From the sequence record DRR378314_814: a stretch of DNA of 41,207 nucleotides; one strand, given 5' to 3'. A program made the translations under genes and the position numbers. Below, one piece after another: positions 11,389 through 38,858 of this stretch (position 1 is its first letter; the number at the start of each line of letters is the position of its first letter). The notes below the pieces were generated by a model, which saw only the letters and a program-made list of their open reading frames with translations, was not told the DNA's origin and did not search any database.

Positions 11389-11465
11389 TGGTGGGTGTAA
11401 CAAGATTCGAACTTGTGACCTCTGCCATGTCAAGGCAACGCTCTAACCAACTGAGCTATACACCC
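11389..11465 (-). tRNA. tRNA-Val(GAC)
   Basis: GGGTGTATAGCTCAGTTGGTTAGAGCGTTGCCTTGACATGGCAGAGGTCACAAGTTCGAATCTTGTTACACCCACCA: 77-nt cloverleaf, anticodon GAC, encoded CCA. Confidence 0.97.
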
Positions 11466-32339: not shown

Positions 32340-34316
32340 ATGAAAAAAATAGCCTATGGCATCGTCGCAATCCTTGTCCTGTTGATTGTTGCTGTCATTG
32401 CCCTGCCCTTTGTGATCCCGGCAGAGCGGATCAAGCAGGAAATCATGATTGCAGCCAATGACGCAACTGGCCGAACCTTGACCATCGACGGGGATTTTGG
32501 GGTCAGTGTCTTCCCGGTTCTGGGCCTGAACGCCAGTAAGGTTGCTTTTTCCAATGCGCCAACCAGTGAAGTGCCGAACATGGCCACCATTGAAAACCTC
32601 ACGCTGGAGCTGAACCTGCTTCCGCTGCTCAGCGGTCAGGTTTCAGTCGATAAATTTATTCTGGATCAGCCGGTCATTGTTCTGGAAGTGGCCAAGAACG
32701 GCCAAAAAAACTGGGAATTTGAAACTGCCGCTGCGGCCCCTGCAGAACCGGCAGAAGGCGCTGAAAGTGGCGGCGCTGCGGATCTTGGTATCAGTGATCT
32801 GAACCTCGGCGATGTGCAGATCAAGGATGGCTCCATCACCTATCGTGATCTTCAGGGCGGAACAACGCATGAAGTGACAGAAGCTAATCTCGCGCTAGTG
32901 CTCAACGGTCTGGATCAGCCTTTCAAAACCGAAGGCTCCGCCGTCTGGAAAGGCGAAAAGGTTGAGGTGAATACCGAACTGGGCTCTTTACGCGCGGTTC
33001 TTGAAAACCAAGCCACAACTGCCGCCGTTGGCGTAAATTCCAGCAAGGTGACACTTAATTTCGATGGGAATATCAACAGCCTGACGCCAGTTGATGTGAC
33101 CGGCGCGACGGAGCTCAATGTACCCTCCTTAAAAGATCTTATGGCCTGGGCCGCAGAGCCGATGGAGGCCAAAGACGGCACCATGGAAGCCGTGATCATT
33201 AAGGGCAACGTCGGCGTGAAAGGTGATACTTATTCTTTCACCGATGCGGATCTTTCTTTTGATGCCATCAAGGCCACCGGTAATTTCGCAGCCAATCTGG
33301 GCGGAAAAGTCCCTTCCTTAAAAGGCGACCTGACCGTTCCGCTGCTCGACATAAACCCCTATATGCCGGCTGAGGGCGGTGAAGCGGATCAATCCGCGAC
33401 TGAGGCAACCTCCGCCAAATCCGGGGAAAAATGGGACAGCACCCCCATTGATTTCAGTCCGCTGAAAGCCTTGAACGCTGACTTCAAACTGTCCATCGGC
33501 CAATTGCTGGTTCAGAAAATGAAGATCGGCCAGACAAGCCTTGCTGCCCTGATCAAAGACGGCGTTTTGACACTCGATCTCAGTGAACTTGCGCTGTATG
33601 AGGGCACCGGCAAAGGTCGCGTGACCGTCAATGCTCAAGGTGAGCAAGCCAAAATTGCGGAGAGTTTCTCGCTGACCGGGTTAAACCTGCAACCCTTCCT
33701 TAAAGACGCTGCGGATTTTGACAAGCTGGAAGGAACCGGGAATTTTGACCTGAATGTCACTTCTGTTGGCACTTCGCAGAAAACCTTCGTTGATAACCTC
33801 AACGGCGACGGCGGGATCCTGTTTACCGACGGGGCGATTAACGGCATCAACCTTGCCGCCATGGCCCGCAATGTTACCAGCGCCTTCACCGGCGGTGGCG
33901 ATGTGAAGAAAACAGATTTTGCGGAACTTTCCGGCACCTACACGATTACCAATGGTCTGCTGAAAAACAATGACTTGAAAATGCTCAATCCGTTCATTCA
34001 GGTGACCGGCAAGGGAACGGTCAATCTGCCGCCGCAAACCCTTGATTACCGGCTGGAGCCAAAAGTCACCGCCTCCAGCAAGGGACAGGGCAGCGATGAG
34101 GCCTCTGGTCTGATGGTGCCGATCAATATTACCGGCAGCTGGCAGGATCCAAAATTTGCCCCCGATCTGAAAGGCATCATTTCCAACGCTGTCGATACGG
34201 ATAAGCTGAAGGAAAAAGTGGAAGATGCCGCCAAAGAGAAGGTCAAAGACAAGCTCAAAAAAGATCTTAAGGGTGGCCTGAAAGGACTGGGCGGTCTTCT
34301 GGGTGGCAGCGACTAA
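32340..34316 (+). CDS. AsmA family protein
   Basis: N-terminal TM, ATGRTLTIDG, GQKNWEF, LYEG, TDFAELSGT and VPINITGSWQDPK AsmA-type motifs. Confidence 0.85.
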   Translation: MKKIAYGIVAILVLLIVAVIALPFVIPAERIKQEIMIAANDATGRTLTIDGDFGVSVFPVLGLNASKVAFSNAPTSEVPNMATIENLTLELNLLPLLSGQVSVDKFILDQPVIVLEVAKNGQKNWEFETAAAAPAEPAEGAESGGAADLGISDLNLGDVQIKDGSITYRDLQGGTTHEVTEANLALVLNGLDQPFKTEGSAVWKGEKVEVNTELGSLRAVLENQATTAAVGVNSSKVTLNFDGNINSLTPVDVTGATELNVPSLKDLMAWAAEPMEAKDGTMEAVIIKGNVGVKGDTYSFTDADLSFDAIKATGNFAANLGGKVPSLKGDLTVPLLDINPYMPAEGGEADQSATEATSAKSGEKWDSTPIDFSPLKALNADFKLSIGQLLVQKMKIGQTSLAALIKDGVLTLDLSELALYEGTGKGRVTVNAQGEQAKIAESFSLTGLNLQPFLKDAADFDKLEGTGNFDLNVTSVGTSQKTFVDNLNGDGGILFTDGAINGINLAAMARNVTSAFTGGGDVKKTDFAELSGTYTITNGLLKNNDLKMLNPFIQVTGKGTVNLPPQTLDYRLEPKVTASSKGQGSDEASGLMVPINITGSWQDPKFAPDLKGIISNAVDTDKLKEKVEDAAKEKVKDKLKKDLKGGLKGLGGLLGGSD

Positions 34317-36931: not shown

Positions 36932-37606
36932 ATGCTGAGCCGCGAAGATTTTACCCCGGAACGGGTTGATTTACTGATAGCCGAGGCTCGCAAATTTGGG
37001 CGCTTCGATGCCCTCACCCATCAGGAGCGCGAAGAAAGCCGCCAACAGTTTCTGCAATCCGCCCCCCTCCCGGCGGAAGGCCTTTGGGTCTTTGGTTACG
37101 GATCGCTTTTATGGAACCCCGCCTTTCATTATATCCAGTCCGCCCCCGCCCGGCTTTACGGCTATCGGCGGCATTATTGCCTGCATCTGACCATGGGCCG
37201 GGGCAGCCCTGATAAACCGGGGATCATGCTGGCCCTGGACACCGGCGGCTCCTGCAATGGCCGCGCCTTTCTGATCGAACCGGACAAGGTGGAAAGCGAA
37301 ACCCGGATCCTCTGGCTTCGTGAAATGCTCTCAGGTGCCTACCTGCCCCGCTGGGTTAGCATGAAAAAAGGCGACGGGACACCAATCAGGGGCCTGACTT
37401 TTGTTGTCAACCGCTCCCACAGCCGCTACCGCGATGATCTGACACCTGAAGACCTGGTTCTGCGGATATGTCAGGGGGAGGGGCATCTTGGGAGCAGCCG
37501 GGAATATCTGGACAATACCATCGCCCATCTTGAGGAAATTAACGTGCGGGACAGATATCTGCATGACCTGCAGAAACGGGTACGGGCATCTGATAAAAAG
37601 CCATAA
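36932..37606 (+). CDS. chaC: Glutathione-specific gamma-glutamylcyclotransferase, ChaC family
   Basis: LWVFGYGSLLWNP, RGSPDKPG..LALD.GGSC.G, LWLREM. Confidence 0.88.
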   Translation: MLSREDFTPERVDLLIAEARKFGRFDALTHQEREESRQQFLQSAPLPAEGLWVFGYGSLLWNPAFHYIQSAPARLYGYRRHYCLHLTMGRGSPDKPGIMLALDTGGSCNGRAFLIEPDKVESETRILWLREMLSGAYLPRWVSMKKGDGTPIRGLTFVVNRSHSRYRDDLTPEDLVLRICQGEGHLGSSREYLDNTIAHLEEINVRDRYLHDLQKRVRASDKKP

Positions 37607-37657: not shown

Positions 37658-37701
37658 AAAACGAAAATGACCCGGCACGAGGGGTATGTGCCGGGATCAT
37701 T
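37658..37701 (-). terminator. Intrinsic terminator of the candidate sRNA (may also stop chaC transcription)
   Basis: CCCGGCAC (37671-78) / GTGCCGGG (37688-95) stem extended by AATGA/TCATT; the minus strand continues UUUUCGUUUU. Confidence 0.7.
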
Positions 37702-37733
37702 ATATCTCTGGTTAAGCCGAAGCTTTTCCAGTG

Positions 37734-37854
37734 GGGTATTGGGTACTTGGTACATACTATATGGGTACATAGTATTACTTCTATACTTGGGTACTTGGTA
37801 CTAAGGGTACTTGGTACATGTTGCGCATTTGGGGTACTTGATACAACTTGGTAC
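37734..37854. repeat. Cluster of short direct repeats GGGTACTTGGTAC
   Basis: Exact copies at 37741, 37789 and 37805; variant GGGTACTTGATAC at 37832; partial copies at 37734, 37763, 37784 and 37846. Confidence 0.9.
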
Positions 37855-38140
37855 TCATCGAGTATCGAGGGGGGGTGATACCCGAACAAACGGTGCGCGT
37901 CCGTTCGATGAAGAGAGTATCTCCAGAGTGGATGTAATTAGCAAGTTGAAATACGAAAAAGACTGTTTTTGAAAACAAACCGTTAGCAAGTCATTTAGGT
38001 ATATCGCAGTTATCTTTTTAGAATTACTTTGCTGTTCCTAATTATCGTTTATGTAATATTTTAATTTCCGAAACTCATCGCTTAGAAATAAATTTATTAC
38101 AAATTTTCCGAATCATCGCTGGTATTGGAAAAACCCACGG

Positions 38141-38170
38141 AAAAACGGCGCTCCCAAAGGAAGCGCCGTT
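38141..38170 (-). terminator. Intrinsic terminator of the VPLPA-CTERM gene
   Basis: AACGGCGCT...AGCGCCGTT stem with a T-run on the minus strand. Confidence 0.8.
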
Positions 38171-38195
38171 CAAATTCGTCGTGGATTAAAGACTG

Positions 38196-38858
38196 TTAAG
38201 CCGCGTTTTTACGCCGGCTGAACCAACCCAGACCCAGCATCGCACCACCGAACAGCAGCATCGCAGGTGGCAGCGGAACAGCAGAGATCTGAACATTGTC
38301 AATGTAACCACCAAGAGTGTCATCTGCACCTGATGCCCAGAATTCCAGTGTGTAGTCACCTGCAGTCAAAACGTTGAACAGAACTGTTACTGTGGTCCAA
38401 CCATCAGATTTCTCACCAGTCACAGATTCGTTGAACAAACCTGTTGTATAGGTTACGCCGTTGGTTACTGCACCATCTTCCAAAGCGTAGTTAATACCGT
38501 TTGTATTCTCATCGTTTGTGCGGCCAATATATTCAAATGAGAACTCGTGCGCACCAGCATTCAGGCTTACAGTCTGGTACATGCCTGAATTGGTGTTCTG
38601 CCCACCATGACTGTCCAGTTCAACCTTGTTGTTACCCCAGTTTGTTGAAACACCGCCAACTGGATTTGTCTGAACTTCAATTCCGGATGTGTTCCCGAAT
38701 TTTGTCCAGCCATCAATGTTAGCATAAACGTTCCACTCACCTGCATTTTGAACAGGATCTTCAAAACTTCCGTTTGTGACGATCGCGGCAGACGCTGTCG
38801 ATACACCAAATACACACGCTGACAAAGCAGCAGCAGCAACCCAATTCTTAATAGCCAT
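38196..38858 (-). CDS. VPLPA-CTERM (PEP-CTERM-like) exosortase-sorted surface protein with a DUF642/CBM-like beta-sandwich domain
   Basis: Signal peptide, IVTNGSFE, YIDNVQIS, C-terminal VPLPPAMLLFGGAMLGLGWFSRRK (motif, TM helix, basic tail). Confidence 0.88.
   Translation of the reverse strand: MAIKNWVAAAALSACVFGVSTASAAIVTNGSFEDPVQNAGEWNVYANIDGWTKFGNTSGIEVQTNPVGGVSTNWGNNKVELDSHGGQNTNSGMYQTVSLNAGAHEFSFEYIGRTNDENTNGINYALEDGAVTNGVTYTTGLFNESVTGEKSDGWTTVTVLFNVLTAGDYTLEFWASGADDTLGGYIDNVQISAVPLPPAMLLFGGAMLGLGWFSRRKNAA

Follow-up and report, generated by a model that had tools for sequence, protein, structure and literature searches.

The window, i.e. the whole stretch of 41,207 nucleotides that was analysed, carries on its minus strand, from about 37909 to 37664, a free-standing RNA gene of ~246 nt as predicted from the window sequence. 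The gene is formed by its own promoter, two 5' hairpins (H1 and H2), a motif array, a third hairpin (H3) and a terminator. The features of the locus are the following:

36932-37606 (+): chaC, the convergent downstream neighbour (Pfam ChaC, E 1.8e-34), found as convergent neighbour in 15 of 17 loci
37664-37909 (-): predicted sRNA transcript, ~246 nt (fold z -4.00; BLAST and two covariance models), the 3' end possibly reaching 37658
37664-37700 (-): terminator AUGAUCCCGGCAC-AUACCCCUC-GUGCCGGGUCAU followed by UUUU, with arms at 37671-37678 and 37688-37695 and an extended stem at 37700-37667
37708-37731 (-): hairpin H3, CUGG-AA-AAGC-UUCG-GCUU-AA-CCAG, with C(UUCG)G at 37722-37717 and an invariant UACCCC just before it
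37733-37859 (-): motif array with 9 AGUA and 10 GUAYC cores and three exact GUACCAAGUACCC copies (pattern counts)
37753-37741, 37801-37789 and 37817-37805 (-): the exact GUACCAAGUACCC copies
37844-37832 (-): GUACCAAGUACCC with one mismatch
37746-37734 (-): GUACCAAGUACCC with two mismatches
37775-37754 (-): window-specific hairpin AUACUAU/AUAGUAU with GUACCC in its loop
37827-37822 (-): central UGCGCA block within the array
37860-37883 (-): hairpin H2, with the C-rich loop ACCCCCCCUC at 37876-37867 (helix 2: 99.2% paired, 2 of 6 pairs changed on both sides)
37884-37906 (-): hairpin H1, GAACGGACG / CGUUUGUUC (helix 1: 6 of 9 pairs changed on both sides, 89.9% of cells paired)
37916-37945 (-): promoter with CTTG/TTGCTA (-35, 37945-37939), a 17-nt spacer and GATACT (-10, 37921-37916), from geometry and alignment
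37946-38030 (-): promoter-upstream blocks AAGTAAT (38029-38023), CTGCGATATACCTA (38009-37996) and TTTGTTTTC (37979-37971), from the alignment of 16 promoters
38052-38069 (-): palindromic box 2, GGAAATTAAAATATTACA, spaced 32 nt from box 1 and preceding the conserved CTTG by 124 nt
38084-38101 (-): palindromic box 1, TGTAATAAATTTATTTCT, preceding CTTG by 156 nt; its consensus is TGTAAT-N6-ATTACA
38144-38170 (-): terminator belonging to the upstream PEP-CTERM/VPLPA-like gene (inverted-repeat scan)
38196-38858 (-), with its terminator 38144-38858: upstream gene on the same strand, encoding a secreted protein whose C-terminal anchor is PEP-CTERM/VPLPA-like (NCBIfam PEP-CTERM subfamily matches, all below the cut-off)

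An earlier note had proposed a promoter TTGCTA-N17-GATACT with a start near 37909, and this is present at 37944-37916, with TTGCTA at 37944-37939 and a predicted +1 near A37909. In each of the 16 full-length copies the stretch running from CTTG through the -10 measures exactly 30 nt, and the alignment of the 16 promoters has conserved CTTG and NATACT columns as well as invariant and nearly invariant ones upstream of the -35. Other elements of that description were also located: the CGAACGG/CCGUUUG hairpin lies within H1 (37906-37884), GUACCC is in the loop of AUACUAU/AUAGUAU, the CUGG...C(UUCG)G...CCAG hairpin is H3, and the terminator at 37700-37664 has the C-rich loop AUACCCCUC. A consensus promoter/terminator scan flagged neither the promoter nor the terminator of the sRNA because, on our reading of its thresholds, the promoter has 8 of 12 hexamer matches where 9 are required and the loop of 9 nt is longer than the 8 allowed.

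With up to two mismatches allowed, 13 of the 19 upstream regions have box 1 at -155/-156 and 10 have box 2 at -123/-125. Over all positions of the 19 regions, TGTAAT-N6-ATTACA gave 24 matches at this stringency against 1.2 expected from shuffles. In the window the two boxes are the arms of a 17-nt inverted repeat. A UvrY/GacA box, TGTAAGN6CTTACA, has been reported upstream of csrB genes (PMC3171408) and agrees with the consensus at 10 of 12 positions; this likeness may be the coincidence of an AT-rich palindrome.

This PEP-CTERM/VPLPA-like gene is upstream of the sRNA in 9 of 17 loci. On the other side, the gap between chaC and the sRNA terminator is 58 nt in the window versus ~1 kb of extra DNA in genome G008 (L071:10647-11623). 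On the plus strand the terminator hairpin 37664-37700 is followed by AUUAUAUCUCU, so it may be a bidirectional terminator that also serves chaC. A tRNA gene is present in the window at 11392-11465 (-), and in genome G005 a tRNA lies ~340 nt upstream of the sRNA promoter (L025:836-907).

Conservation and distribution of the RNA

The carrier genomes belong to the marine genus Sneathiella (Sneathiellales, Alphaproteobacteria). A ChaC-anchored scan of species genomes led to two Sneathiella MAGs, each with the element downstream of chaC. G008 is the genome closest to the window and collinear with it, at 76-81% nucleotide identity (AhpF 93%, ChaC 79%). BLAST with the 301-nt region gave matches in 17 of the 39 genomes of the order, four of these carriers also having matches to array fragments or a weak one outside the locus. 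Covariance model R1, which covers the 3' module, identified the identical 17 of 39 genomes with one match each. The model of the 5' module was strong in 16 of the 17, the seventeenth copy being at a contig end, and reached just E 0.04-0.09 in two further genomes. Within Sneathiella the sRNA is a single-copy element of 17 of 38 species genomes. In the class, 151 genomes were sampled and two of them matched, both being Sneathiella genomes already counted, and a pattern scan of metagenomes gave 64 stretches, of which 9 passed the motif filter and 7 were family members, comprising 4 new sequences. In five of five non-carrier genomes the chaC orthologue (58-61% identity) adjoins a convergent coding gene and the array is absent, thus the sRNA marks a subclade of Sneathiella.

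None of 200 shuffles of the whole 246-nt RNA folded as well as the RNA itself. In the 5' module, aligned over 20 sequences, pairing holds in 94% of the cells and 8 of 16 pairs have compensatory changes; none of 500 shuffles reached this, and slid controls fall to 21-47% paired. The H2 loop has C5-C7 in every aligned copy. The place of H3 forms a hairpin in the 21 family sequences, with inner stem sequences that are unrelated to each other. Judged from these alignments, compensatory changes are present in H1 and H3. The 12 pairs of the terminator are almost invariant over 17 sequences and its loop includes ACCCCUC; terminators are seldom so constant, which suggests a sequence-specific use.

The same alignments bear on whether the locus acts as RNA at all. 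A DNA-level element (iterons or a protein-binding array) would have direct repeats in the DNA, as found here, and a small protein gene with YQVP repeats would have an ORF, and frames of 11-91 aa can be drawn. However, the compensatory changes and ~40 G-U cells of the 5' module fit only an RNA of the minus strand, the promoter and terminator are kept, and no ORF is conserved among the copies: starts, frames and lengths differ and the repeats fall in different frames. Both explanations are thus very improbable.

At the gathering score, Rfam 15 contains no family matching the window or 14 homologous loci, tRNAs excepted. With E up to 10 there were just five weak matches (E 0.74-7.9), far under the gathering scores. 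No description of this RNA was found in the literature on Sneathiella or Sneathiellales sRNAs, on protein-sequestering sRNAs of alphaproteobacteria with a repeated motif, or on AGUA or GUACC motifs (supplementary files aside). The earlier note had recognised no family and had taken the element for a standalone minus-strand RNA instead of a UTR; it was right on the first point as far as Rfam goes, and the second agrees with the promoter, covarying hairpins and terminator kept in the 17 carriers. The sequence evidence as a whole argues that the sRNA is a real gene, restricted to a clade, predicted to be independently transcribed, non-coding and of a family new to Rfam.

The motif array and its possible pairing

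The array had been described as copies and variants of a motif with a UACC core. The repetition stands, conserved with a variable copy number, whereas the core had to be redefined as AGUA(C/U). In the window the 13-mer GUACCAAGUACCC has 5 matches with up to two mismatches, all on the minus strand in 37734-37844, where 0.31 would be expected and none of 100 shuffles gave as many; GTAYCAAGT equally has 5 matches (0.18 expected; 0 of 100 shuffles). Among 16 arrays AGUA is the top 4-mer, present 184 times in 1883 nt (4-27 per array), and AGUACC, CAAGUA and GUACCC are the next commonest. The usual unit of these arrays is AGUAYCAAGUACCC, with a UGCGUAW block in mid-array. Across the family each RNA has 4-28 copies of AGUA(C/U), and the core of the array is constant while copy number, spacing and flanks vary between copies. 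Recent tandem expansion was identified in three lineages: a unit of 15 nt ~13 times, another of 15 nt 5 times and one of 39 nt 3 times.

The motifs had also been taken to be single-stranded, which the folding does not bear out. The array is G-poor and its predicted mean P(paired) is ~0.55; GUAY being self-complementary, RNAfold nests 4-bp helices in it, and as modelled the array is not clearly single-stranded. An RNA that pairs with itself or with its like, through GUAY:GUAY helices of 4 bp forming a rod or linking molecules, would be recognised by structure and not by sequence. RNAfold nests GUAC:GUAC helices in every family member and the arrays are slightly more stable than dinucleotide shuffles (mean z -1.5), yet no helix exceeds 4 bp, GUA has a conserved A on its 5' side and CC on its 3' side that stay unpaired, and the stability is just -0.12 to -0.22 kcal/mol per nt. 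This explanation is accordingly held to be improbable.

If the array were to titrate another RNA, be it an sRNA or a fragment of a tRNA or rRNA, the latter would need GRUACU-type complements, and the C/U alternation at the fifth motif position would be tolerable for pairing to G. On both strands of the 39 genomes, all 36 exact matches of AGTAYCAAGTACCC fall inside the sRNA locus, which leaves no other RNA in these genomes with an extended complement. Adjacent motif pairs are no more favourable, as dimers and trimers of the motif outside the locus are at or under the control frequency in the 39 genomes and mostly coding or due to chance. A role of this kind is quite improbable.

Pairing with mRNAs has more in its favour. 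The RNA would then be an Hfq-dependent sRNA whose C-rich elements are redundant seeds for G-rich Shine-Dalgarno regions: C5-7 of the H2 loop, the UACCCC before H3, ACCCCUC of the terminator loop and the ...UACCC(C) units of the array, which would multiply seeds or act as a spacer. Each of the 20 RNAs has a minimum of three stretches of C that are four or more nucleotides long, the H2 and terminator loops are kept among the copies, an Hfq match was obtained in 4 of 5 carrier genomes, a U-tail follows the terminator stem with AU-rich sequence on the 5' side, and GAGGGG or GGGGGG is present in 23 of 1107 heuristic initiation regions of the closest genome. Against it, conservation in the repeat is highest at AGUA, and the AGUAUCA half-units lack a C-run; GGGUAC (7 vs 4.4 expected) and GGUACU (7 vs 4.3) are not enriched in the initiation regions; and sRNAs of that kind need no 13-28 copies of one seed. 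As an account of the whole RNA, base-pairing is the main rival of the decoy role discussed below and is considered somewhat unlikely; if it held, the RNA would still be a well-defined new family with no Rfam entry.

Known RNAs with repeated motifs and a possible decoy role

CsrB/CsrC and RsmX/Y/Z are the CsrA/RsmA-titrating sRNAs of Gammaproteobacteria. The RNA described here resembles them in being a standalone sRNA with one short motif present many times in a copy number that varies between species. An upstream palindrome may be a further likeness (TGTAAT-N6-ATTACA here, TGTAAGN6CTTACA there; PMC3171408). The differences are in the motif, AGUAY here and (A)GGA there, and in its setting: over 20 RNAs GGA is present 1-4 times and A.GGA 0-1 times per RNA, with GG 0-1 times per array; the GGA (e.g. 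GGAUAUC) is in the H2 stem where examined; and the AGUAY copies are mostly in a tract predicted to be weakly structured and not in hairpin loops. The Rfam models of CsrB, CsrC and RsmX/Y/Z gave no match to the sRNA.

CrcZ/CrcY are the Hfq/Crc-titrating sRNAs of Pseudomonas, in which a repeated unstructured motif is the decoy for a global translational regulator. They share with this RNA a repeated motif with a decoy role, which here is only proposed, and differ from it in that AAnAAnAA is present in 0 of 20 RNAs, at least three consecutive ARN triplets are found at most 3 times per RNA and no sigma-54 type promoter was seen at the sRNA. The alpha-r14/cuckoo/CcsR and RsaE/RoxS RNAs are sRNAs with several C-rich seeds. 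The former are similar in having several conserved C-rich single-stranded loops in one alphaproteobacterial sRNA, whereas CCUCCUCCC is found in 0 of 20 RNAs here, Rfam gave no match and AGUAY, the main repeat, has no richness in C. In type III antitoxin RNAs (ToxI and relatives) a tandem repeat array with units of ~34-45 nt is followed by a terminator and then, on the same strand, by an endoribonuclease toxin gene; a tandem array in a small RNA ending at a terminator is common to both, but the units here are degenerate and of 7-15 nt, and the next gene is convergent chaC (15 of 17 loci) with no toxin gene. To our knowledge, protein-titrating sRNAs serve few regulators (CsrA/RsmA, Hfq/Crc and, for 6S, RNA polymerase), almost all of them in Gammaproteobacteria or Firmicutes. 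The design of this sRNA would be that known layout with a new motif, in genomes with no detected CsrA or ProQ.

We regard as plausible, and hold tentatively, that the array is a decoy titrating an RNA-binding factor. Of the explanations considered it best fits the multiplicity of the motif, its expansions, the upstream site resembling a Gac box and the finding of no complementary RNA; the sense-orientation clusters elsewhere in carrier genomes, given below, were also counted in its favour. Counted against it were the lack of a binding partner among the families searched, the lack of enrichment in leaders, motif dimers and trimers elsewhere that are no commoner than in controls, the confinement of each extra cluster to one or two genomes, the possibly coincidental GacA-box likeness and an array that is predicted to be partly self-paired. 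The AGUAY array would be a multivalent decoy for a sequence-specific factor recognising (A)GUAY(C), most likely a protein other than CsrA, ProQ or a classical Hfq distal-face ligand. A transcription factor acting on the two phased TGTAAT-N6-ATTACA palindromes would set the amount of decoy, giving a Gac/Rsm-like logic from different parts. The C-rich loops (H2, UACCCC before H3 and the terminator loop) may also pair with G-rich mRNA sites, and decoy and base-pairing roles may coexist.

The protein partner that the earlier note had envisaged was looked for among RNA-binding families (CsrA, ProQ, RRM and KhpA) in five genomes, and no candidate emerged. CsrA (PF02599) was found in none of the five carrier genomes, some of which are incomplete MAGs, although control genomes did match; ProQ and KhpA were each found in 0 of 5 genomes, and RRM in 1 of 5, solely one lacking the sRNA. 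The idea that the motif marks mRNA leaders likewise found no support: among 1112 heuristically called genes covering 1.2 Mb of G008, upstream regions, initiation regions and 3'UTRs were enriched neither in the motif nor in its complement, and outside the sRNA there was one cluster of at least three AGUAY against 11 for the control pattern.

If the decoy role is true, marine Alphaproteobacteria would have a post-transcriptional regulator that has so far escaped notice. The sRNA could be the bait for finding it, with the AGUA core as the evident mutant control, and the split of 17 carriers versus 21 non-carriers inside one genus permits a phylogenetic profile. A wider scheme can be drawn, in which a response-regulator-type factor bound to the two phased boxes drives the decoy RNA and this titrates a global RNA-binding protein, i.e. 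a Gac/Rsm-like cascade made from unrelated parts, with a TctC 3'UTR, an OmpA-like leader and a second non-coding element as other ligands of that protein. Such a cascade is speculative and considered somewhat unlikely.

Occurrences of the motif outside the locus

Sense-orientation clusters of the motif were identified in three non-coding places, each in one or two genomes only, and their sequences hint at a shared reader of the motif. The first is a gene for a TctC-family substrate-binding protein with UAGUACCAAGUACCAGUACCAAGUA in its 3'UTR, between stop codon and terminator (G029:C67 ~33813-33830 (-), L068; G035:C71:12327-12344, L069), present in 2 of 39 genomes, which are themselves near-identical. 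The second, AAGUA...AAGUACCCAGUACC at G008:C1:57460-57500 (-) (L144), lies 5' of an OmpA-family lipoprotein gene, ~60-95 nt ahead of its start, and is the sole non-sRNA cluster in the 1.2 Mb of G008.

Two other candidates were rejected. The one at G022:C6:457761-457828 (L073) is an unrelated 9-nt repeat, (AGTACCCTC)n, in a long stretch that looks coding by eye, and the one at G020:C35:9250-9289 (L074) is an intergenic (GAAGTAT)n microsatellite with AGUA-like letters, unrelated to the sRNA.

The third place is a second non-coding element, a repeat of ~460 nt with three copies in G008 (95-100% identical) and two diverged ones in G001 (L222:1230-1700, i.e. G008:C1:1411014-1411534; L220, L221, L219; L217/L202:1330-1640). 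A strict pattern recovered just the three G008 copies, BLAST gave G008 and weakly G001, and Rfam had no match for it. The element ends in a long terminator-like hairpin, UCGCCGGUGAUGC...GCAUCAYCGGCGA, with a U-run, and the hairpin loop has GUAYCAAGU and UUGCGUAA, as in the sRNA array. One of the G008 copies is ~8 kb upstream of the sRNA.
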